Of a DNA stretch of 55,301 bases, positions 30,925 to 41,913 are shown one piece after another. The DNA is from Candidatus Bathyarchaeota archaeon. Lineage in GTDB: Archaea > Thermoproteota > Bathyarchaeia > Bathyarchaeales > Bathyarchaeaceae. Below the pieces are notes generated by a model that did not search any database, was not told the origin of the DNA, and was given only the letters and a program-made list of their open reading frames with translations. The stretch spans positions 1 to 55,301 of the forward strand of contig JAUWZP010000002.1 of assembly GCA_030615265.1 (NCBI GenBank). Direction: 5' to 3'. A program made the position numbers and the translations under genes. Each line of letters starts with the position of its first letter. Position 1 is the stretch's first letter.

Positions 30925-32505
30925 ATGGTGCAAGCCTTTGAAGAAATAAGCGCTGCCGACTTCTTCTACAGAAACCGCGACATAGCAGGGTTCACCAATC
31001 CATCTAGAGCCATCTTCTCCTCAATACGAGAACTCGTGGAAAACTCCCTCGACGCCTCCGACCAGTCGCGCATCCCTCCAGAAATCTACATTCGGCTTTC
31101 CTTCGAATATGAAGGGTCCATGAAGGGCTCTGGGGAAGTCAAAGCGGAAGATGAAAGCCTTTTTGAAAACGGTTTTAGAGGCACTGAACCCAAAGTGTAT
31201 AGGCTACGTGTGGCAGACAACGGCTCTGGAGTGCCAGCGCGTCATATACCCGCAGCTTTTGGTCAAGTTCTGTTCGGGTCCAAGTATAAACTAAAGCAGA
31301 CACGAGGAACCTTTGGCTTAGGCGGAACAATGGCACTTCTCTACGGACAGATCACCACTCACAAACACGCTTTGGTCAAGTCTAGCACTGGTGGAGCCAG
31401 AATTTACATATACAAGATTATGGTGGACATTCCGAGAAATCGGCCAATAATATTAGACCGCAAGATTCTGTTAAACAAGGAAGGCTGGCGTGGAACAATC
31501 GTGGAGTTTTCGTTAGAAGGTGACTACGCTAAGGCGATGTCTCGAATTTTGGAGTACTTAAAGCAAACAGCCTTGGTTAATCCTTACGCTAATATCATGT
31601 TTATTGACCCAAAAGGGCGTCTGTACAAGTTTACACGAGTCACTACTCAAATGCCACGTCCTCCAAAAGAGACTAAACCTCACCCTTACGGCGTAGATGT
31701 TGAAGCCATTCAACGTCTCATACGGGTTACCCCTTGCCGAAACATGGTTGACTTTATGAGGAACCATTTCCATCGAGTGGGCGAAAAAACTTCCCACAAG
31801 TTCCTTGAATTTGCTGGAATAGGTAAAACCATAAACCCGAGAAAGCTTTCACGGGAAAGAATTGTACGCCTTGTGAAAATGATGAAGCGCTTCCGTAATT
31901 TTCTGCCTCCAGACGCCAGCTGCCTGTCGCCCATAAGTGAGGAGCTGCTTAAGGCTGGAATTCTAAAGGAGTTGCAGCCCGAGTTTATTGCTTTCTGCCA
32001 GCGTCAACCCTCCACTTATTCGGGGCATCCCTTCATCGTTGAAGTTGCAATAGCCTATGGCGGAAACATCGCGAGGAAAAACGACTTGGTTCTCTACAGA
32101 TTTGCGAACAGAATTCCCTTGCTGTACGATGAGGCTAGCGATGTCTCGTGGCGGATCATTAAGAGGATCAATTGGCGAAGATACAAAGTGAGTCTTGACA
32201 TGCCAATCGCTATACTGGTTCATATATGTAGCACTAAGGTTCCCTACAAGACCGTTGGCAAAGAATTCATCGCTGACAGACCAGAAGTGAAAAGAGAAGT
32301 CCTTAATGGAATCCGCGAGGCAGCCCGTCAGCTTCAACGTTTCCTAACCAAACGAGAGCATGTGGAGAGAGAGAGAAAACGGCTTTCCACGTTTTCCAAG
32401 TACCTGCCAAAAATCGCCCAGTTCTCAACTGAACTGGCTGGAAAAAAGAGGCCCCCCGACATCAAAAAACTGTTGTGGAGCGTGAAGAAATATGAAGAAA
32501 AGTAA
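30925..32505 (+). CDS. top6B: DNA topoisomerase VI subunit B
   Basis: Bergerat-fold N-terminus (ISAADFFYRNRDIAGF, ELVENSLDA, DNGSGV, GTFGLGG) in a 526-aa ORF. Confidence 0.95.
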   Translation: MVQAFEEISAADFFYRNRDIAGFTNPSRAIFSSIRELVENSLDASDQSRIPPEIYIRLSFEYEGSMKGSGEVKAEDESLFENGFRGTEPKVYRLRVADNGSGVPARHIPAAFGQVLFGSKYKLKQTRGTFGLGGTMALLYGQITTHKHALVKSSTGGARIYIYKIMVDIPRNRPIILDRKILLNKEGWRGTIVEFSLEGDYAKAMSRILEYLKQTALVNPYANIMFIDPKGRLYKFTRVTTQMPRPPKETKPHPYGVDVEAIQRLIRVTPCRNMVDFMRNHFHRVGEKTSHKFLEFAGIGKTINPRKLSRERIVRLVKMMKRFRNFLPPDASCLSPISEELLKAGILKELQPEFIAFCQRQPSTYSGHPFIVEVAIAYGGNIARKNDLVLYRFANRIPLLYDEASDVSWRIIKRINWRRYKVSLDMPIAILVHICSTKVPYKTVGKEFIADRPEVKREVLNGIREAARQLQRFLTKREHVERERKRLSTFSKYLPKIAQFSTELAGKKRPPDIKKLLWSVKKYEEK

Positions 32506-33583
32506 GAGCGCTGCTTTAGAAAGGAAGAAAGAAGTTGTTGCCAAGTTAGAAAGTTTTGGTCTCGACCTTTACGAGCAGATGGAGAAAGGCGTTTTTCCAT
32601 CGATAAAGATGCCTAGCCGCTCCATCGAAAACATCCGCTATAGCCCTGAGTTTCGACAGTACATTTTAGGTGAAAGGAAAGTGCACCGAAGTGCCCGCAA
32701 CATACGTCATATTCGCCCTTTCACTCAACTCGTTTGGACAGCCTTCTTCGCACATGAACTCGCAAAACATCGCAAAACCTCAACCCTGAGAGATGTCTAC
32801 TATTCCGCACAAGCTTATAACATGTCATTTAAAGACCAGCCTGAATCCAACAACATCATTACGGATTTGGAAACCATTTCAGGCTTTGCCAGAGAAGACT
32901 TCAACGTTTTCCCAGAAGAACGCTCAGCCATTTTCGGAGACCTAACCATCGAATACACGGTTCCAGGCTATGAGGGAAAGCAGTTAAACTTGACTTCACA
33001 TCCCGACGGCGTCATGATAGGACCTGCCTTAACCTCATCCGAGTTCGCAAAGACCGGTGCAGACAAGGTTATAGCCATCGAGAAAGGTGGTCTTTTCACG
33101 CGGTTTGTTGAAGAGCAAGTGCACCGGAAATTTAACGCCTTGCTTGTTCTCACTGCTGGTCAGGCACCTCGCGCCACTAGGCACTTTATTCATCGGCTTA
33201 ACAAGGAGCTCAGTCTCCCAGTTTACATTTTCACAGACGGCGACCCTTGGGGGATGCACATTGCCATGGTCATTATATCTGGTTCGGCGAATGCAGCTCA
33301 CTTAAGGGAGTTAACTACGCCAGATGCCAAATGGAGCGGGGTATGGGCCAGCGACATTGTAAAGTATAAGTTGCCAAGCGACCCCCTGACCGCTGTTGAC
33401 GTTAAGCGTCTTTACGAGCTGCAGAGGGACCCAAGATACGAGGGCAAATTGTGGCAGAGAGAAACCAAAAGATTCTTAAAAATTAAGAAAAAGGCGGAGC
33501 AGGAGGCTTTCAGCCGCTACGGCTTAACCTACATTGTAGATGAATATTTGCCAGCTAAACTTGAGGCTCTTGAAGAGGATTAA
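32492..33583 (+). CDS. top6A: DNA topoisomerase VI subunit A (Spo11 family)
   Basis: LRDVYYSA (catalytic Tyr block), VIAIEKGG, and IFTDGDPWGMHI (Toprim DxD). Overlaps top6B by 14 nt. Confidence 0.95.
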   Translation: MKKSKSAALERKKEVVAKLESFGLDLYEQMEKGVFPSIKMPSRSIENIRYSPEFRQYILGERKVHRSARNIRHIRPFTQLVWTAFFAHELAKHRKTSTLRDVYYSAQAYNMSFKDQPESNNIITDLETISGFAREDFNVFPEERSAIFGDLTIEYTVPGYEGKQLNLTSHPDGVMIGPALTSSEFAKTGADKVIAIEKGGLFTRFVEEQVHRKFNALLVLTAGQAPRATRHFIHRLNKELSLPVYIFTDGDPWGMHIAMVIISGSANAAHLRELTTPDAKWSGVWASDIVKYKLPSDPLTAVDVKRLYELQRDPRYEGKLWQRETKRFLKIKKKAEQEAFSRYGLTYIVDEYLPAKLEALEED

Positions 33584-33765
33584 GCCCGCTTTAACAAACT
33601 TAAAATAGCATGTAAAATTTACTTAAAACTTTAAACATTTCTAGGATATATTCAGAATGTCTTCTTATGTTTTCCATGAATTAGAAGAATCTTGCTTATA
33701 TACAATTTTCCATGAGATCAGATTGCTCTTTTGGAGGAGGGAGGACTTAGATTTCCTCATTCTAA

Positions 33766-33906
33766 CTATGCAAAGATCGCTGAGAATCCGATAATATATC
33801 CACATTTCTTACAGACATAAGCAAAATGTACTGTGCTTATTCCTCTGAGCTTCACATCTTCTATTTCATCTTCGGATAGTTCTCTATCACATTTAGGACA
33901 TTTCAT
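33766..33906 (-). CDS. Small zinc-ribbon protein (46 aa; below the ORF-track cut-off)
   Basis: Hand translation gives MKCPKCDRELSEDEIEDVKLRGISTVHFAYVCKKCGYIIGFSAIFA, with CPxC...CxxC. A GGTG lies ~10 nt upstream of the ATG. Confidence 0.4.
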   Translation of the reverse strand: MKCPKCDRELSEDEIEDVKLRGISTVHFAYVCKKCGYIIGFSAIFA

Positions 33907-34004
33907 TTTCCACTACACCAACCTATGGATCGTTAAAGCTCTAATTGATATGATTTTCCATGAAGTCTGAATGTATATGCACTACCTCAGGTCTGAGTAT
34001 TAGA

Positions 34005-34349
34005 CTATCTATTCAGTCTTTGTTCAATTCTTTCATTAAGCCTAAACACTTTGCTCTCAATTATTTTCCAAATATCTTCCATAGTCCAAAACTTATTCAT
34101 ATCTTCTCCCGTATGCAATGGCATTTTACGCATGGTGATTTCAAGCATAATTCCAATATGATATCCTAACAGAAGGTCTCTAGTCTCTCTGATATTTGCT
34201 GTAGGGACTTCCAATAGCAACGACTCAATCCGCTTAATTCTTTCAGGATACATTTCGGTTTTCTCGATATACTCATCGGTTTCGTTTTCAGCCATACCTC
34301 TCAGTGTTGCATCCAAACTACAATCACCTCTCAACCATCTTGTTTTCAT
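34005..34349 (-). CDS. Hypothetical protein
   Basis: 114-aa ORF in the element. No family recognised. Confidence 0.4.
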   Translation of the reverse strand: MKTRWLRGDCSLDATLRGMAENETDEYIEKTEMYPERIKRIESLLLEVPTANIRETRDLLLGYHIGIMLEITMRKMPLHTGEDMNKFWTMEDIWKIIESKVFRLNERIEQRLNR

Positions 34350-34587
34350 CTCGGTTTTTGTTAAGTATTAATCTTTATTGTATCGTTTACAGCAAAAGTG
34401 AATCTTTTTCAGATAATTCAAGCTTGAAATTCCATAAAGTCTGAATGTTCCAGAGAGAGAATCATATTAACGCCTAGCGTCTTGTTAATATGTTTGAGTT
34501 GAGAAGGTTGAGACATTTTCACCTGAAGATTCATTAGAGCAATACGAGCTAAGTAATCTAACGAGAACGAAGAAAGAAGGAAAATAA

Positions 34588-34803
34588 TTGGTAAAATGCT
34601 CAGAATGTTTGCATTTTGATCATGGTTTCTGTTACGGAAAACGAGATCAACAAGGATATAGGATTCAAAAATCTGTTGGAAGACCTGACGAAGAACTTAT
34701 GTGTGATAAGTTTTTTGCTTGGAGGGAGTTTCTGAGGATTCTTTATTCTGAACGTGTAGGAGAACGAATGAATGGAAGCAAACAAGAATACCGAAAGTCG
34801 TGA
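34588..34803 (+). CDS. Hypothetical small Cys-rich protein (uncertain)
   Basis: 71-aa ORF with a TTG start (KCSECLHFDHGFCYG...MCDKF). Its stop codon is the first 3 nt of the left 16-bp inverted repeat. Confidence 0.3.
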   Translation: MVKCSECLHFDHGFCYGKRDQQGYRIQKSVGRPDEELMCDKFFAWREFLRILYSERVGERMNGSKQEYRKS

Positions 34804-34816
34804 ATGCATGTATGCA
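34801..34816. repeat. Left arm of 16-bp perfect inverted repeat TGAATGCATGTATGCA
   Basis: Read directly. The exact reverse complement occurs at 37646..37661. Confidence 0.9.
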
Positions 34817-34891
34817 CTTTAATAAAAAATAGAGAAAATTTCATTCTGCTCTCATATTTATAAGGCAATACAACAGCCATTAAATCAGAAG

Positions 34892-35764
34892 TTGCTATCT
34901 GGGGATGGAGGCATGCATGCGTCGTTCTCTGAAAGAATGGGTTTTAAGAAGGTTAGAACCGAAATCCAGATCAAATCTATGGATATTGCTCTAAGAAAAC
35001 GTCTCTGGAATGTCTTGGATTTGTACTATTGGACTAAAGGAGAGGGAGAGAAACGTTATGGATATGTAGCTTCGAAAATGCAATCATTTCTCAACAAGTT
35101 AATGCATCATCATTACAAAGACACCGTTGATATATTACCTAAAAAGTGGTCTGACGCTCGTGCACTGTTAAAGGCACGATTTTTTGAATGTGAATGGTTT
35201 GCAGTATATGATTTCATAGAATTCACAGCAGATAACTATCCAGATAAAACAACCAATGAGCAATTCATGAAAACATGCAAGAGTGTCCTTGAAGAGGAAA
35301 TGTCAGCCTATCGTTTTGTTGGAGGAAGAATTACTCCGATAACTTCAGAAGAAGAGATTTCCGAAATAGATGAAGCACTTGAAACTCCTTTAAGACCTGT
35401 TAGAGTCCATGTAGAAGAAGCATTGAAATTGTTGTCTGATAGAAAATCTCCTAATTATAGAAACTCTATTAAAGAATCCATAAGTGCAGTTGAGGCAATC
35501 TGCAGATTAATAGCTAATGACAAGAATGCTAAATTAGGTCAAGCATTAAACAAGATAGAAAACAAGATAGGTCTTCATGGTGCTTTGAAGAAGGCATTTA
35601 GTTGTTTATACGGATATACAAGCAGTGCCAATGGAATAAGGCATGCTTTGTTTGACGAACCTAGTACCTTGAGCTTTGAAGATGCTAAATTCATGCTAGT
35701 TTCATGTTCTGCATTCATAAATTACCTTGTGGCAAAGATGGGAAAGGCAGGAATAGAACCTTAG
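34892..35764 (+). CDS. AbiJ-like abortive-infection protein (AbiJ N-terminal domain + HEPN-like C-terminal domain)
   Basis: The N-terminal block FSERMGFKKVRTEIQIKSMDIALRKRLWNVL and the C-terminal block YRNSIKESISAVEAICRLI...LYGYTSSANGIRHAL match my recollection of AbiJ_NTD4/HEPN_AbiJ proteins. The likely start is ATG 34913. Confidence 0.55.
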   Translation: MLSGDGGMHASFSERMGFKKVRTEIQIKSMDIALRKRLWNVLDLYYWTKGEGEKRYGYVASKMQSFLNKLMHHHYKDTVDILPKKWSDARALLKARFFECEWFAVYDFIEFTADNYPDKTTNEQFMKTCKSVLEEEMSAYRFVGGRITPITSEEEISEIDEALETPLRPVRVHVEEALKLLSDRKSPNYRNSIKESISAVEAICRLIANDKNAKLGQALNKIENKIGLHGALKKAFSCLYGYTSSANGIRHALFDEPSTLSFEDAKFMLVSCSAFINYLVAKMGKAGIEP

Positions 35765-35780
35765 GGAAAAAATCTCTCCA

Positions 35781-35794
35781 ATGCATGCATGCAT
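35781..35794. repeat. 14-bp perfect palindrome ATGCATGCATGCAT between convergent stop codons
   Basis: Read directly. It fills most of the 29-nt spacer between the AbiJ-like stop (35764) and the stop of the 622-aa gene (35794..35796). Confidence 0.9.
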
Positions 35795-37662
35795 CAGCTA
35801 TCATCTCTTTCCTTTATTGTATATTTATCTAGAATAGTTTTCATGTTCTTTCTATCTCCATTATCCTTACTTATAGAATCACCAAACATTTTCAAGTCAA
35901 GATATTTCTTAATAGCAGTTTTTACTCTATTTCTTAAAACATTTGGTTCTAGAGCGTCAAGCTCAACGCCATAATTTATGTTGAATGTTTTCTTAAACCA
36001 CTTAAGTCTCTTATCCTTGCTCTTAAGCGGATTCTTGAATAAGTTATACTTTGTTACATCAGCGACATTTAATGCTGTTTCTTCAACATCAACATTATTG
36101 ACATCTATTTCTTTGAGTCTTTCTCTTAGATACTTTGGCATATCTTTTCCACTAGGGTCTAAATCACCAAAATACAATACTTTAATTTCTCGGTCAGAGT
36201 AATTTGCAAATCTCTCTTTAGCACTAAATATTTGTGCTAGTGAAGGATACTTTCCAGATACAGATAGATAGACTCCAAATATATTAGTCGTCGAAAATAT
36301 GGTTCTTGCTAGTGCCTTCTTTTCTAACCATACTTCAATATAGTATCGTTGCTTTGCCCACCAATCCCCTCTGTAATAATCTAGTGCTTTCTCAAGAGGT
36401 TCTAGGACATTTTTGTATTGTGGGGTTCCTAACAGCTCTGTATCATCTGCTATACTTTGTGGAAGTACTAATCCCCCTAATACACACCTAGTGATTATAT
36501 TATCTAAACTTTGATATGTATTAATAGATGCAACACTCGTTTTGGGAAAGGGTACAATTTTGTTGCTTATACAGTGATAATAAAACTGTCTTACCGTTAT
36601 TATTCGATGTGTTTGTATGAATTTGACTAATGCTCTGTACTGTTTCAAAACTCTTGTCTGTATGCTTCTAAGGAATGGTCTATAAGGAGTTCCAATTACT
36701 TGTAATCCAGCATTTGCACAGATTCCATAGTGTTTATTTGAAGTAGAAGTTGGGTTTTCTATTCTCGAAGTTAGTTCTTGCATTTCCTCTCTTGTTATCC
36801 AATCCTTGTCCCACAGTTCTTGCACTCTCTTATCCTTCCATTTGGTTTTTGAAGATTTTTTCATGTTTTCTTGCTCCCAGCCCCAGCCCAGAAGGCAAGC
36901 CAAGAATATATGCTCTGGGGTAATCTTGAGAGAAATGATATCCTCTCTCCATAAAAAAAGACCAGACCTGCTGGAATTCAGAGGAATTTCCCAGATGCAT
37001 ACAAACCTGCTGAAACATCCAGAGAGTCCCCCCACAACCTGTTCTTTTTGGCTAGATTCAGAGGAAAAATCTTCAATCGAAATTGCTTTCGAGCTTGTTA
37101 TCCTCTTAACTATCTCAGAAACTAAGTGTAATAACCCTCTCTTCAAGTATGTACTTGCTATATAATCAAAGAAATATGAATGAGACTCGAACTGCTCAGA
37201 TAGCTTCCTATAGTAGAACCCTATGAAGTCAATAGGCTTAAAGACTTTAACATGATGATCCCTTAATATCTTCAAGCTATCTCTAGTATAGACTTTCTTA
37301 TCATTAGTCAGAATTATCCTATAATCGTAAGAATCATTGAATCTCGGTAGATAGTCATGTTTAATGTATGAAGGATAGATGTTAGCATAGGATTCATGAT
37401 ATTTACATTCTACTCCAAAAGTGAGCTTACCACAAGAAACCTTAGAGTCTACACCTTTCTTTCGGTTATTTGACTTCCAGAAAGAAGCTATGAAGGGGTT
37501 AGAGTCATGGTCTATCATATTGTCATCTAGAATCTCAAATTGAACAAATAATTCCCAATTGAAACCTAAACTCTGTCTTGTTGTTAATCCTTTATAGAAA
37601 TCAGTCCTGTATAACCTATCATTTCTTTCTAGATGATTAGGTTCATGCATACATGCATTCAA
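35794..37662 (-). CDS. Spo11/Topo VI-A-like protein (5Y-CAP + Toprim) with ~330-aa N-terminal extension carrying a PD-(D/E)xK-like motif
   Basis: Blocks align by eye to the host Top6A: IITVRQFYYHC vs TLRDVYYSA, YIEVWLEKKALARTIF vs KVIAIEKGGLFTRF, SVSGKYPSLAQIF vs LTAGQAPRATRHF, VLYFGDLDPSGKDM vs VYIFTDGDPWGMHI, GVELDALEP vs KAEQEAFS. The N-terminus has IDHD...LTFGVECKY. The first ATG is at 37650 (MHEPNH). Confidence 0.7.
   Translation of the reverse strand: MNACMHEPNHLERNDRLYRTDFYKGLTTRQSLGFNWELFVQFEILDDNMIDHDSNPFIASFWKSNNRKKGVDSKVSCGKLTFGVECKYHESYANIYPSYIKHDYLPRFNDSYDYRIILTNDKKVYTRDSLKILRDHHVKVFKPIDFIGFYYRKLSEQFESHSYFFDYIASTYLKRGLLHLVSEIVKRITSSKAISIEDFSSESSQKEQVVGGLSGCFSRFVCIWEIPLNSSRSGLFLWREDIISLKITPEHIFLACLLGWGWEQENMKKSSKTKWKDKRVQELWDKDWITREEMQELTSRIENPTSTSNKHYGICANAGLQVIGTPYRPFLRSIQTRVLKQYRALVKFIQTHRIITVRQFYYHCISNKIVPFPKTSVASINTYQSLDNIITRCVLGGLVLPQSIADDTELLGTPQYKNVLEPLEKALDYYRGDWWAKQRYYIEVWLEKKALARTIFSTTNIFGVYLSVSGKYPSLAQIFSAKERFANYSDREIKVLYFGDLDPSGKDMPKYLRERLKEIDVNNVDVEETALNVADVTKYNLFKNPLKSKDKRLKWFKKTFNINYGVELDALEPNVLRNRVKTAIKKYLDLKMFGDSISKDNGDRKNMKTILDKYTIKERDDS
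37646..37661. repeat. Right arm of 16-bp perfect inverted repeat (TGCATACATGCATTCA on + strand)
   Basis: Exact reverse complement of 34801..34816. Overlaps the start-codon region of the 622-aa gene. Confidence 0.9.
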
Positions 37663-37771
37663 CTCTTTTTATTTCAAAAGGAGAGTGTGAGGATAAGGAT
37701 GTGATTACATGTCAGATTGAGGATAAATGTCTGAAACATATCCCCACACTATTTTGACTCCTTTAATTCAA

Positions 37772-38179
37772 TCATTTATTTTTTATAACTAACTCAACTG
37801 CTTTATTCAGTAAATCTTCTATCTTATCAGACTTGGATAATCTATGAGTAATTCTTTCTCCAGAATATCCCACTTGTTGATGTAATGTAGAATACATTAT
37901 TGCTTTCTGAGGTTCCTTAGATACCTCATAAGGATCAGATAGTTCTTCTTCAGATTCCTCTTCAATGCTTCCGTCTGTGGCTAAGATTTGATTAATAGTT
38001 CCATTCTCAACTTTAAGTAGAAATTTGTTAAAGTCTTCCAGAGTGTATTTTGATAGTTCTTGAATGATAACATCTCTAGCAGAAATGGATAATTCTTCAA
38101 CACCTTTAGAAGTGTAGATGTGACCTAAAACAGAATTAGTATCTGAATCAATCTCTTTTACTCTAAACCATATTTTCAT
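37772..38179 (-). CDS. Hypothetical protein (acidic central segment)
   Basis: 135-aa ORF, 6 nt downstream of the wHTH gene. No family recognised. Confidence 0.45.
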   Translation of the reverse strand: MKIWFRVKEIDSDTNSVLGHIYTSKGVEELSISARDVIIQELSKYTLEDFNKFLLKVENGTINQILATDGSIEEESEEELSDPYEVSKEPQKAIMYSTLHQQVGYSGERITHRLSKSDKIEDLLNKAVELVIKNK

Positions 38180-38185
38180 AAGAAT

Positions 38186-38446
38186 CTACTCCAGTAATGC
38201 TAGTCGCCTTAAGCCTTCTTTAGTAATTGAGAATGTTCTATTCCTGTTCCCCTCAGCAGAAATGGATTCAGACTTTATCAAATTTCTAATATGTGTCTGT
38301 AGTGTGTGGTATAATGATATCCCAGTATAACCATAACTGAAGCCAAATACCCTTTCTAACTCATTGAATCTTAATGATTTATCACTAAGTATGTTTAGGA
38401 TTCTAAGCTCATTTAAAGAAGATTGAGGGCGTACTATTCTTTTCAT
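38186..38446 (-). CDS. Small winged-helix DNA-binding protein
   Basis: LNELRILNILSDKSLRFNELERVF...RTFSITKEGLRRL is a wHTH-like pattern. 4-nt overlap with the upstream gene. Confidence 0.5.
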   Translation of the reverse strand: MKRIVRPQSSLNELRILNILSDKSLRFNELERVFGFSYGYTGISLYHTLQTHIRNLIKSESISAEGNRNRTFSITKEGLRRLALLE

Positions 38447-39198
38447 TCTACTTCACAAACCTTAGCTAATTGCTGAATGTGTTTCTTTTTCTGTTGATGT
38501 TCAGAGATCATAGTATTGACACAAGAATCTAGAATGCTAGAGAGATTTCTTTCTCGTAATTGATGAATAGTCTTGATGTTTTCTCCTTGCTCTTGACGTT
38601 TAGAAAGTTCATGTGATTCCTTGAGTCGGCTAAGTTCCTCATTCTCTAACTTTCTCTTAAACTCAACCATTGCATTATAAATCTGAATGTCCTTGTTTCT
38701 ATAGTCACTTTGGGAATGTTCCTTTTTACCTGTTAAGATATATGTCTCAGCGTCACGACTTGCTTGTTTTCTCATAGCTTCATCTTCATCAGTTTTGAAC
38801 TTTGATATTTGTTTATGCAATTCAGCATTAAACAAAATTTCATAACGTTCCTGCTCGGGATATTTCTGTTTCTCTAATGGATAGAATTTTGAATGCGGTA
38901 GTATATTCTTTGTTAGTTCTTGAGAAAGTAGCAACTGCTTTCTTAGTTTACCAGTTACAGGATAGTTTTCTAAAATGTCTAAATATTCTAAAGACAGTGA
39001 AAGAATTTCAGTAGACAGTTTATCTAATTCTTCACTGTTGTCAAATATTCCATAAATTATCTCATTATATTCCTTACTGTTGTTAACCATATCTTTTAAA
39101 GAGTTCTTACTAAGCTTGCCTCTACATCTTTCTAAAGTAGATAAACCATGAATCCAAATCTTAGAGTTGTCCTTTAATTCTTCTATGTTCCTTTTCAT
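38443..39198 (-). CDS. Hypothetical coiled-coil-rich protein
   Basis: 251-aa ORF, first gene of a three-gene minus-strand operon. No family recognised. Confidence 0.45.
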   Translation of the reverse strand: MKRNIEELKDNSKIWIHGLSTLERCRGKLSKNSLKDMVNNSKEYNEIIYGIFDNSEELDKLSTEILSLSLEYLDILENYPVTGKLRKQLLLSQELTKNILPHSKFYPLEKQKYPEQERYEILFNAELHKQISKFKTDEDEAMRKQASRDAETYILTGKKEHSQSDYRNKDIQIYNAMVEFKRKLENEELSRLKESHELSKRQEQGENIKTIHQLRERNLSSILDSCVNTMISEHQQKKKHIQQLAKVCEVE

Positions 39199-39333
39199 AA
39201 TAATATACCTACTATAAGTTAATGACTGTCACTTCAGCTATATATATGTTGTCTATACTATAATTTGTTACCTAGCACTATGGATATTATTGAAATAAAA
39301 GAGAGGATAGGATATGAATTTTATCCAAGTCTG

Positions 39334-39591
39334 TTATTCTTTCTTCTTTAGGTAGATTTTATTTTCTCTCTGTAGAACTGTTAGAGATAGTTTTCTTACC
39401 TTGATTCTAGTTCGTAATCCAATTAGTAGTGTCTGAGAAGTTACTCCTTTAGCTCCAACTCTAACAGATTTACTATCAGATTCTAAGAATTGATCTAGTA
39501 CAGCATCGTATTTACTACCTCTCTTAGCAAACTCTCTTTCTACTTTAGGTATCTTCTCTGGAGTTAATGTAAAATCTAACATCTCACTCAT
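39334..39591 (-). CDS. Hypothetical small basic protein
   Basis: 85-aa ORF. No family recognised. Confidence 0.4.
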   Translation of the reverse strand: MSEMLDFTLTPEKIPKVEREFAKRGSKYDAVLDQFLESDSKSVRVGAKGVTSQTLLIGLRTRIKVRKLSLTVLQRENKIYLKKKE

Positions 39592-40093
39592 AGACTTCTC
39601 ACCCCTATTCTAAGTTGATTGAAGAGAACATCAAGTTACAGCTAGTATCATTTAAGAGTTATTGATTTGAATAATTAAAAGAAGTATGGTTCCTACCTTT
39701 ACAGAACTCTCTCTTATGTATATTTTAAACAATACTCGATTAATGGATGTTATTCATGGAGTATATCTTAACCTCTAGCTCAAGTTTAAATTAATATTAT
39801 GGTTGAATGGTAATATCATTTAACCTTCATACTTTGTCTCCAGTGATGCATGCAGGAAAGGTTATAGAAAATACGGGCTTACATTATGTTCTACTATTGA
39901 AAAAATAGTCAAGTGGATGCATAAAGGAATACTATATGTTCTACCCTAATTCTCTGTCCTTTAAGCCCATTAAGAACCAGAAAAACAAACCATTAAGCAC
40001 AAGTGAACCAAGATGAACCAATAGAAAAAAGAGAGAGGATTATTCCTCGGCATGCATTAAAGAGAAGAAACTATCAGTTAAGAAGAGGGAATC

Positions 40094-40555
40094 CTACTCC
40101 TTTAGAAGTGCATCCCAAATGCTCAATCCTCCTTTTCCATAGTATTGAAGCATAGTCTCCCTTTCAACAATTCTCTTTGCTGTTTTCTTTCCGAGTTTTC
40201 TAATCAAATACGGAGCTAGTTCTACAAATGGAATTTTAGATACACTCGCCATCCATATCACCCCAGATAGAAGTTGACTAGGACTTTCACATATCACTGA
40301 ATGCTGAAGGTTTTTGAGTTCTTTTTCTCTCAACTTTATGTCCTCAAGATAATCGTCTAAATGACTCAACTCAAACTCCTTCCCAACCGCCATAGCTATC
40401 GCCGACATGCATAGGTTGTAATTATTTCTCATATCATAAGCCATAAACTGATTCACTTGTCTTACATGTTTCTCCAATTTCAACAGTTTTAATTCTAACT
40501 TGTCAAGTTTTTCATCAACTAATTCCATTAAACTTTTCTTTTTGGGTTTTGACAT
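40094..40555 (-). CDS. Hypothetical protein
   Basis: 153-aa ORF directly downstream of the integrase. No family recognised. Confidence 0.45.
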   Translation of the reverse strand: MSKPKKKSLMELVDEKLDKLELKLLKLEKHVRQVNQFMAYDMRNNYNLCMSAIAMAVGKEFELSHLDDYLEDIKLREKELKNLQHSVICESPSQLLSGVIWMASVSKIPFVELAPYLIRKLGKKTAKRIVERETMLQYYGKGGLSIWDALLKE

Positions 40556-40636
40556 GATTGCATCTTTGGAAAACTATTGCTAGTAGGCTCTTAAACTTTT
40601 GGTTACAATTGAGACACAAAGAAAGGAGATAGAGAG

Positions 40637-41776
40637 CTATTCCTTTAGCTTCTCTTTTATTATGGGATAAAGCTCTACAGGTATAGTGTCCTTAAATGTC
40701 TCTATCATAGCTTGTTTTCCCTCTGTGGTTAATAGCCAATCCTTAAACATATTACCAAAGTCTAACTTAGCTAATTCTTGCTTAACAGTTTCACTAGAGA
40801 ATTGTTGTTTGTTGTTTATCCTTAAGTGTTCCATAGCTAACTTGTACTTTGCTCTATGCTTCTCTGCATCCTTAGTGAAGTAAGAATTATCTTGCATGTT
40901 TAGAGAGTGTCCCATCCAATAGTGAGCATAAGTTCTATCTACCTTCTCATGTTCACTAGCTTTCATTCTAAACCATTTCCTTAAGCAATAAAGTCTAATG
41001 TCTTTAGGTTTCCCACCTCTGTCTTTAGCTATTCCTAGTTTGAGAGCTATATGACTAAATGTTATTGAGATAGAGCATGTACAAATCTTACCTTTACCCC
41101 TCGTCTTAATGAATACCAAATCTTCATCTTGTGGTTCCTTGTCCTTGAATCTTAGTTTGAAGTATTGCTTCAAGTACTGTACTGTTTCATGTCCTATGAA
41201 TGTACAATAACTAGAGTATTGTCCTTTAGTAATTTCTGAAGGAACATCTATTTTGCAAGGAATAGTATTTTTCTCAAAGTCTTCCCTTAGATGTCCATAT
41301 CTTAGTTTCTGAATGCTTACTGGTCTTAATCCAGATTGAGCCATCATAGAATAGATTGCTTTATCTCTCATCTTTTGAGTGTGAGCTATGATGTTAGATA
41401 TTTCTTCTCTTGTAATGTCTCTATTGTGGTAGATAGGTTTTATAGCTGATATTTTAATCTCTACTGGAGTTCCTAACCACTTAAAGAAACTCTTGATAGC
41501 TACTAAGCTAGTAGATACTGTACTATTGCATATTTCTTTTCTCTCTACTCTTTGCTTAAGACTTACTTTAAATTTCTTAACGTTCATGTTCCATGTCTTA
41601 GTGAATTGTTTCTCTTTTGAATAGCTATCTACAGATTGCCATTCTGTAGCAATAGCATCCAAATTAGTGTTAGTGAATGCTTCAAATAACTTAGTGTATC
41701 TCCTATAATTTCTCTCAGTCATCTTAGAGCCACATACATCAGTTATCCATAAATCAACTGTAGACATATTATTCAT
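40637..41776 (-). CDS. Tyrosine recombinase / integrase
   Basis: N-terminal SAM-like domain (TERNYRRYTKLFEAF, LVAIKSFFKWL). Catalytic blocks are SGLRPVSIQKLRYGHL (Arg), LRKWFRMKA, and HYWMGHS...SYF (His/Tyr region). Confidence 0.8.
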   Translation of the reverse strand: MNNMSTVDLWITDVCGSKMTERNYRRYTKLFEAFTNTNLDAIATEWQSVDSYSKEKQFTKTWNMNVKKFKVSLKQRVERKEICNSTVSTSLVAIKSFFKWLGTPVEIKISAIKPIYHNRDITREEISNIIAHTQKMRDKAIYSMMAQSGLRPVSIQKLRYGHLREDFEKNTIPCKIDVPSEITKGQYSSYCTFIGHETVQYLKQYFKLRFKDKEPQDEDLVFIKTRGKGKICTCSISITFSHIALKLGIAKDRGGKPKDIRLYCLRKWFRMKASEHEKVDRTYAHYWMGHSLNMQDNSYFTKDAEKHRAKYKLAMEHLRINNKQQFSSETVKQELAKLDFGNMFKDWLLTTEGKQAMIETFKDTIPVELYPIIKEKLKE

Positions 41777-41913
41777 ATTCTGCTACACTCCTAAGTTTTG
41801 TAATAATGACTTAAGGAGTATAAGCTTATTATAAGTTGTCGAAAGCTAAATATAAACGAAAGGATAAAATAAAGCCTAGTTTAAACCTATGTAAACCTTG
41901 AGGATGTGAGTGG

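Follow-up and report, generated by a model that had tools for sequence, protein, structure and literature searches.

Two groups of described proteins come closest to the locus reported here. The first are abortive-infection proteins of the AbiJ type, in which the N-terminal domain NTD4 has been described as fused to AbiJ-type HEPN domains; such N-terminal domains were proposed to sense invaders and to restrain the C-terminal toxin (Anantharaman et al. 2013, PMC3710099). In SadR of S. aureus, a bona fide Abi_C protein, an RNEYGDAH motif is needed for RNase and defence activity, and in the SadR survey NTD4 was present in only 3 of 2815 Abi_C proteins (PMC13590631). The second are the Mini-A proteins, defined by the RxxxY motif of the 5Y-CAP domain, the Toprim E and DxDxxG residues and a C-terminal xWELDAL box (Takahashi et al. 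2020, PMC7671362). Mini-A is without that N-terminal portion of 5Y-CAP which binds Top6B, and its original description asked whether it works with an unknown partner (PMC7671362); its role was still listed as unexplored in a 2024 review (PMC11894792). Genes resembling these two groups, here called ORF A and ORF B (ORF, open reading frame), lie side by side in an integrated mobile element of a Candidatus Bathyarchaeota archaeon, within the 55,301-nucleotide (nt) stretch of contig JAUWZP010000002.1 that was analysed and is referred to as the window. A sequence-only reading of this DNA had proposed that the AbiJ/HEPN-like and the Spo11-like gene together form a two-gene defence or addiction module.

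We consider it likely that the two genes in this 2.8-kb region work independently of each other, as parts of a single 8264-bp integrative element in a marine-sediment archaeon. ORF A would then be a stand-alone Abi-type candidate defence gene, whose N-terminal alpha+beta domain would sense or restrain, by analogy with AbiJ-type proteins, and whose C-terminal domain, helical and with Arg-His as an invariant dyad, would, by the same analogy, be the effector, a putative RNase. ORF B, judged from its context, most likely serves the element's own DNA replication, recombination or processing and not defence. That the genes adjoin and converge would come from the way cargo is placed on a small element, and they would be partners neither as sensor and effector nor as toxin and antitoxin. 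The finding fails as a defence module, and the pairing appears incidental.

Re-reading the ORF coordinates confirmed that the two genes converge with only 29 nt (35765-35793) between their stop codons. The frame of ORF A is open from a TTG at 34892 (34892..35764, + strand), which would give 290 amino acids (aa), and ORF B, a fusion of a rare N-terminal domain (N-domain), a linker and a Mini-A part, has 622 aa from its TTG start or 618 aa from an alternative ATG at 37650. Because they are convergent, ORF A and ORF B are separate transcription units and not an operon. A toxin/immunity pair, one of the earlier suggestions, would be expected to be co-transcribed with a small neutralizer; the convergent orientation and the sizes of the products (283 and 622 aa) speak against it.

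Co-occurrence of the two genes was followed from both sides. For ORF A, the survey covered 18 genome loci (6 kb on either side of ORF A homologues with 36-72% identity) and three contigs (L031, L032 and L038; 68-74%). A relative of either half of ORF B was found in 0/21 of these loci, and the gene that converges on the closest ORF A homologue (74%) is an unrelated one. For Mini-A, 80 loci amounting to 785 kb were taken from at least 549 matches in IMG/VR; none of the 80 contained an AbiJ_NTD4 gene or an N-domain gene, and no neighbour of Mini-A was conserved across them. AbiJ_NTD4 was equally absent from the three annotated phage Mini-A loci and from the Mini-A contexts L025-28, L029, L033, L034, L039, L121 and L122. 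Both genes were present in one of the five closest archaeal Mini-A contexts, a single element represented by three assemblies (L021-23), where Mini-A is preceded at 1.8 kb by a same-strand AbiJ_NTD4 gene (67% identical to ORF A), two genes lying between them; common cargo of related elements would account for this. Although adjacent, ORF A and ORF B do not make up a conserved two-gene system. Their homologues almost never co-occur, which is essentially the outcome that the sequence-only reading had itself named as refuting, and the two-gene module is unsupported.

The AbiJ-like call for ORF A was borne out. Both peptide blocks on which it had been based are present, AbiJ_NTD4 (PF18863) matched with 120.9 bits (cut-off 34; E 8.6e-35) over profile positions 2-152 of 152, and the same family was matched by all 87 aligned relatives. 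By these profile matches, membership of ORF A in the AbiJ_NTD4 family can be regarded as established. Among the PADLOC models, PDC-S32 (PDLC04997), a computational single-gene phage-defence candidate, matched at full length (2.5e-113; aa 8-283 against 7-281 of 285), whereas ORF B had no match in the PADLOC check; no paper mentioning or testing PDC-S32 was found in the literature searched. More than 7600 homologues of ORF A were found in archaea and bacteria, about 280 aa long and with AbiJ_NTD4 as their sole Pfam domain. In a candidate defence family that is large and has been catalogued before, ORF A is an ordinary member.

The C-terminal ~110 aa of ORF A are extremely conserved, N191, S192, K194, S198, E201, H229, R250 and H251 being invariant. 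Neither Rx4-6H nor R-(polar)-x3-5-H was found in this domain; instead, the adjacent R250-H251 (GIRH) pointed out in the sequence-only reading is real and invariant in alignments of 39 and 87 family members. Neither Abi_C nor any further HEPN family of Pfam matched the domain in ORF A (E<=10) or in the 87 members (E<=1), so that of the two families named beforehand for profile searches AbiJ_NTD4 scored above its cut-off and HEPN did not appear. A PDB sequence-profile search with the ORF A family gave no match. The AlphaFold model built from the 87-sequence alignment had a predicted local distance difference test score (pLDDT) of 84.3 overall; the AbiJ_NTD4 domain was modelled as alpha+beta with pLDDT mostly above 90, and the GIRH loop scored below 50. 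Foldseek comparison of this model with the PDB yielded no match at E<=1e-3. The compact matches were HEPN proteins only (2Q00, 2HSB, 1WOL, 5YEP_B and 6M6W_B), and they were weak (probability 0.66-0.91, E about 1-3), with target-normalised template-modelling (TM) scores of 0.53-0.60 for 2Q00, 2HSB, 1WOL and 5YEP_B. A fold search in BFVD was uninformative. The caution expressed earlier about an active HEPN RNase was thus well placed, the fold likeness being weak and non-significant. An alignment made by eye between GIRHA of ORF A and GIRNKLDHA of L025_256 was discarded; hhalign gave E 0.26 and a different register.

The C-terminal half of ORF B is assigned to the Mini-A subfamily of type IIB topoisomerase A subunits, because its conserved columns match the RxxxY of the 5Y-CAP (R358/Y362), the Toprim residues (E447 and D500-x-D502-xx-G505) and the C-terminal T2BI box (E567-L-D-A-L). 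In an alignment of 62 Mini-A sequences R358, Y362, E447, K448, D500, G505, E567 and A570 are invariant, and D502, D569 and L571 are kept in at least 90%. The box of ORF B reads GVELDAL, V replacing W in this archaeal clade. PHROG 6247 ('DNA topoisomerase') matched aa 353-618 at 4.6e-45; there was no match in Pfam (including Topo VI-A/Spo11), NCBIfam or PADLOC. The sole significant PDB profile match of the Mini-A family was Topo VI-A of M. jannaschii (1D3Y; Toprim region, E 6.3e-4), and in a weak stretch of that alignment TLRqlYY of the family stands opposite TLREAYY of Topo VI-A. A word-index homologue search with ORF B alone returned almost nothing, and an exhaustive HMMER search was needed; it gave 3893 homologues, nearly all of them stand-alone proteins of 280-340 aa aligning to aa ~305-620. 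A scan of the viral collection with full-length ORF B found no relatives. The closest relatives of the Mini-A part are stand-alone Mini-A proteins of 310-320 aa with 44-53% identity. The Spo11-like call stands for aa ~306-622, a homologue of type IIB A subunits, but not for the first ~300 aa, which make up another module. With the 5Y-CAP tyrosine and the Toprim metal site present, ORF B may in principle be able to break DNA and join it again by way of a tyrosine covalently bound to it.

The surroundings of Mini-A in other genomes point to DNA processing. A Mini-A homologue was found in 78 phage records, including the archaeal virus HCIV-1. In Pseudomonas phage PaMx25 it lies between the genes for an ATP-dependent DNA ligase and a Sak4-like annealing protein, in a block that also holds a primase, RNase H, a Cas4-type exonuclease and a helicase. 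An AEP-D5 primase-helicase gene is near Mini-A in L039, and in L122 Mini-A again belongs to a small element with an integrase. Mini-A is the one replication gene of skuldviruses, and was proposed to be their replication initiator (Medvedeva et al., bioRxiv 10.1101/2021.07.29.453957). Since phage Mini-A genes reside in replication and recombination modules, a part in DNA processing is more likely for ORF B than one as a defence effector.

The N-domain is much rarer than Mini-A. The homologues found for aa 8-181 were only P0125 (241 aa, 68%), P0203 of L019 (218 aa, 43-45%) and an ORF at L020:7986-8738 (250 aa, 31%), all three of them stand-alone proteins; no second fusion of the N-domain to Mini-A was among the ORF B homologues listed. 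E37, D72, E85-x-K87, YPS..I and TNDK are invariant. Profile searches gave no Pfam, NCBIfam, PHROG or PDB match, a viral-collection scan with the N-domain alignment found no relatives, and a single-sequence AlphaFold model of ORF B (pLDDT 33) allowed no fold to be assigned. P0125 lies between genes for a PC4-like single-stranded DNA-binding protein and an ATP-dependent DNA ligase (L030:603-2831), a setting of DNA metabolism, on a 3.1-kb contig with no Mini-A. The short match found for the linker runs from aa 277 to the N-terminal extension of P0132. The ~90 linker codons are open in the frame of ORF B only; the other two frames have 0.09-0.12 stops per codon, and our own calculation from this stop density puts the chance of an open run as long as the linker at ~5e-5. 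Because of this low probability the fusion is judged not to be an accidental read-through.

All close archaeal Mini-A genes have a gene of 179-288 aa before them, in the same direction, whose end lies 217-300 nt upstream of Mini-A. These preceding genes fall into three groups (L021/L034, L025/L029 and L033) that are mutually unrelated by BLAST, and searches in Pfam, NCBIfam, PHROG and PDB profiles found nothing for them. Each group has a G-h-D ... h-(E/Q)-h-K/L block. In hhalign comparisons with the N-domain the top alignments fell on the corresponding GxD...GV(E/Q)xK block, with E values of 0.07-0.7; a later block, h-h-P-x-x-F/Y-x-x-F-Y, is common to the N-domain and the preceding genes by eye only. 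E37, D72 and E85-x-K87 of the N-domain fit the PD-(D/E)xK pattern, the hhalign comparisons with the partner genes and with Mrr reaching only E 0.07-0.7. The gene preceding the closest Mini-A, L033_259, weakly matches the Mrr-like part of PADLOC PDC-S02 (0.0044). These resemblances are suggestive only of a divergent, nuclease-like partner of Mini-A that would be fused to it in ORF B. ORF B, in which Mini-A is naturally joined to a domain that has its own gene elsewhere, bears on the question of the unknown partner.

A palindromic motif, GCATGYATGC, occurs at four sites in the window, all of them at the borders of ORF A and ORF B (Table 1). The six strand matches compare with 0.09 expected, a number reached in 0/100 shuffles, and the composition of the element predicts 0.011 sites. 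Sites 1 and 4 form an exact inverted repeat of 15 nt, which extends to 23 nt at 87%. The core of the motif was also found in five independent related archaeal loci (L019, L020, L021-23, L032 and L034), mostly at gene ends, one site lying 11 nt past the stop codon of an ORF A homologue. In contrast, the 785 kb of viral loci contain two sites only and 184 kb of genome loci none. Possible roles of the palindrome are those of an operator, of a junction for recombination or of a cassette, and of a site at which Mini-A acts. A statistically strong palindrome tied to ORF A, ORF B and related elements is in itself of some value.

The element carrying both genes could be delimited exactly. Contigs in two public marine-sediment metagenome runs (X1 and X3) join position 33600 to 41865, skipping 8264 nt with 7 letters shared; an empty site therefore exists, and the element comprises 33601-41864. 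It is flanked by a 7-nt direct repeat, TAAAATA (33601-33607 and 41865-41871). Word depth was 7.8-9.6 inside the element, 14.3 outside and ~4.5 for the joined, empty form; the element is polymorphic and, by depth, carried by roughly two thirds of the population. With a GC content of 0.341 against 0.438 in the rest of the window and a tyrosine recombinase gene, the integrase-bearing element recognised in the sequence-only reading stands, its ends now being exact. Two other proposals for its ends were rejected: long att repeats, for which the matches were at chance level, and a 30-nt, 70% inverted repeat (33666/42516), whose right arm is outside the element. On the minus strand the integrase is followed by genes for proteins of 153, 85, 251, 86 and 135 aa, with ORF B last; ORF A and a 71-aa ORF, on the plus strand, face this array. 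The integrase and ORF B excepted, none of the element's ORFs matched a DNA-enzyme or replication-protein family (Pfam, NCBIfam, PHROGs, PADLOC). There is no ATPase (GHKL, B-subunit) family in any element ORF and no JetABC/Mks gene in the element, and the window contains no tRNA gene. A viral-collection scan with the 153-aa protein found no relatives. For the 86-aa ORF at 38186..38446 the matches were faint and winged-helix-like (DUF4364, 0.003; Csa3/CasR, about 0.01). Its product is a possible DNA-binding regulator of the element, and perhaps a reader of the palindrome.

The host genes top6B (30925..32505) and top6A (32492..33583) lie just upstream of the element and outside it, the insertion point being 17 nt past the top6A stop codon. 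An element with a Topo VI-A-like gene has thus inserted downstream of the host top6B-top6A operon. A duplication of host Top6A as the source of ORF B was ruled out, the similarity being marginal (29% over 72 aa, E 0.015). In run X1 one contig skips 101 nt inside ORF A (35505-35607), and loose ends, several in number, lie at 35454-35929. Cross-assembly with other AbiJ_NTD4 genes of the community, which are highly conserved in their C-terminal region, is the probable cause.

Table 1. Coordinates of the features in the window and, where a contig handle is given, in related loci
Feature	Position	Strand	Remarks
Integrated mobile element	33601..41864	.	8264 bp; empty-site contigs, GC profile, flanking repeat
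ORF A	34913..35764	+	283 aa from ATG 34913 (as called); AbiJ_NTD4 family, PADLOC PDC-S32
AbiJ_NTD4 domain of ORF A	34922..35386	+	aa 11-165 of the 290-aa ORF
C-terminal all-helical domain of ORF A	35417..35761	+	from family alignments; HEPN-like fold possible
ORF B	35794..37662	-	622-aa fusion of rare N-terminal domain, linker and Mini-A
Mini-A domain of ORF B	35797..36747	-	aa 306-622; type IIB topoisomerase A-subunit-like
Linker of ORF B	36748..37017	-	aa 216-305; no homologue but one short match
N-terminal domain of ORF B	37018..37641	-	aa ~8-215; stand-alone 218-250-aa protein elsewhere
Tyrosine recombinase (integrase)	40637..41776	-	Pfam Phage_integrase 4.4e-9; NCBIfam XerA 1.5e-16, below cut-off
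Motif site 1	34802..34816	+	GAATGCATGTATGCA; overlaps stop of 71-aa ORF, 97 nt upstream of ORF A ATG
Motif site 2	34911..34920	.	GCATGCATGC; overlaps ORF A start codon ATG 34913
Motif site 3	35783..35792	.	GCATGCATGC; in the 29-nt gap between the stop codons
Motif site 4	37646..37660	-	GAATGCATGTATGCA; overlaps ORF B start region (ATG 37650)
Motif sites elsewhere	L019:683, L019:1689, L020:6367-6384, L021:4650, L032:7732, L034:227		
Mini-A-preceding genes	L021:7365-7904, L034:1677-2219, L025:5156-6022, L029:2650-3501, L033:897-1676		
Defence-type genes adjoining other Mini-A modules	L025:7495-8403, L025:8680-9450, L034:282-953		

Several observations weigh against two independent genes, one for defence and one for the element's own DNA. 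The same rare palindrome lies over both start codons, and the 15-nt repeat brackets the pair; this could mean common regulation or mobility. The co-occurrence in L021-23 exceeds what random gene placement would give. A gene for Mrr (type IV, mREase_IV, PADLOC 1.2e-83) is directly downstream of Mini-A in L025, and canonical-looking HEPN motifs with no family match (GIRNKLDH, RNELEH) can be seen by eye near Mini-A in L025 and L034. No biochemical function has been reported for any Mini-A (PMC7671362, PMC11894792), and a HEPN fold is no more than possible for the C-terminal domain of ORF A. That the two genes form one defence or addiction module, in which an RNA-targeting AbiJ-like and a DNA-breaking Spo11-like protein would be sensor and effector or toxin and immunity, would agree with their tight convergent arrangement across the 29-nt gap, with the recurrence in L021-23 and with the palindromes at both start codons and in the gap, which suggest common control. 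We nevertheless hold such a module to be highly improbable: the partners were found together in 0/21 AbiJ loci and 0/80 viral Mini-A loci, those of L021 point the same way and are separated by 1.8 kb and two other genes, the PADLOC model of PDC-S32 is that of a system with one gene, convergent genes are not an operon, and Mini-A is common in the replication modules of lytic as well as temperate phages. It is also unlikely that the locus is a mini defence island of two independent genes, with ORF B as a DNA-cleaving effector related to JetD/MksG and the N-domain as a second nuclease or a sensor. The weak PADLOC matches of close Mini-A relatives to the Toprim part of JetD (1e-4), the position of Mrr in L025, the E...D...ExK pattern of the N-domain, typical of PD-(D/E)xK nucleases, and the weak match of L033_259 to PDC-S02 (0.0044) would be in its favour. 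However, ORF B itself has no PADLOC match, like true type IIB enzymes it has an invariant catalytic tyrosine, the similarity to JetD is confined to the Toprim region, no JetABC/Mks genes accompany it in the element, Mini-A is widespread in virus genomes (at least 549 IMG/VR matches), and the nuclease assignment of the N-domain is without statistical support (hhalign E 0.07-0.7).

The palindromes raise a further explanation, namely that 34802-37660 (2.86 kb) is a mobile or invertible cassette in which they serve as recombination, cleavage or origin sites for the integrase or for a dimeric ORF B, ORF A being cargo. The confinement of the motif to four gene borders, far above expectation (6 against 0.09), the exact 15-nt inverted repeat of sites 1 and 4, the bracketing of ORF A by two identical GCATGCATGC sites and the inverted orientation of the Mini-A gene relative to L021 are all consistent with this, as is the distribution of the motif, which marks gene ends in the five related archaeal loci, is nearly absent from the viral loci and absent from the genome loci. 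On the other hand, no strand-changing joints indicative of inversion were found at the motif sites in the contig data, although contigs drop rare variants, and flanking inverted repeats comparable to sites 1 and 4 were present at no other Mini-A locus. Palindromes at start codons could equally well be operators of a dimeric repressor, for example the winged-helix-like protein of 86 aa, and the cassette is without biochemical precedent; we regard it as improbable. The more specific idea that GCATGYATGC is the action site of a dimeric N-domain-Mini-A fusion, which would either initiate replication or, as a recombinase cutting and resealing DNA, move or invert cargo such as AbiJ_NTD4, is given similarly little credence. 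If it were true, the motif would be the first defined substrate, and the activity the first function, of Mini-A proteins, and the presence of AbiJ_NTD4 cargo near Mini-A in two otherwise unrelated elements would be explained. The element, exactly delimited, polymorphic and without another recognisable replication gene, offers a compact system for testing Mini-A.

Compared with the described systems, ORF A is a full-length match of PDC-S32 (PADLOC-DB v2), with no difference seen at the level of sequence. With the AbiJ/Abi_C HEPN RNases (L. lactis AbiJ, SadR) it shares the NTD4 N-terminus, a helical C-terminus of ~110 aa, the single-gene architecture and the location on a mobile element, but its C-terminal domain does not match Pfam Abi_C; whereas R-polar-x3-5-H is essential in SadR, ORF A is without this motif and has an invariant adjacent R-H instead. 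ORF B shares with Topo Mini-A the RxxxY, the Toprim E and DxDxxG and the ELDAL box, and, like it, is on an integrated element with no B-subunit/GHKL gene nearby. It differs in being twice the usual length (622 against ~300 aa), through the N-terminal domain of ~215 aa and the linker of ~90 aa, and in the box, GVELDAL instead of xWELDAL. With Topo VI-A/Spo11 it has the homologous 5Y-CAP tyrosine and Toprim in common, and the family profile matches 1D3Y; unlike Topo VI-A/Spo11 proper, it has no family match and no B subunit, and is only 29% identical to host Top6A over 72 aa. Close Mini-A relatives share a distant Toprim similarity (E about 1e-4) with JetD/MksG of the Wadjet/MksBEFG systems, from which ORF B is set apart by the lack of a PADLOC match, the lack of SMC-like JetABC partners and the conserved catalytic tyrosine.

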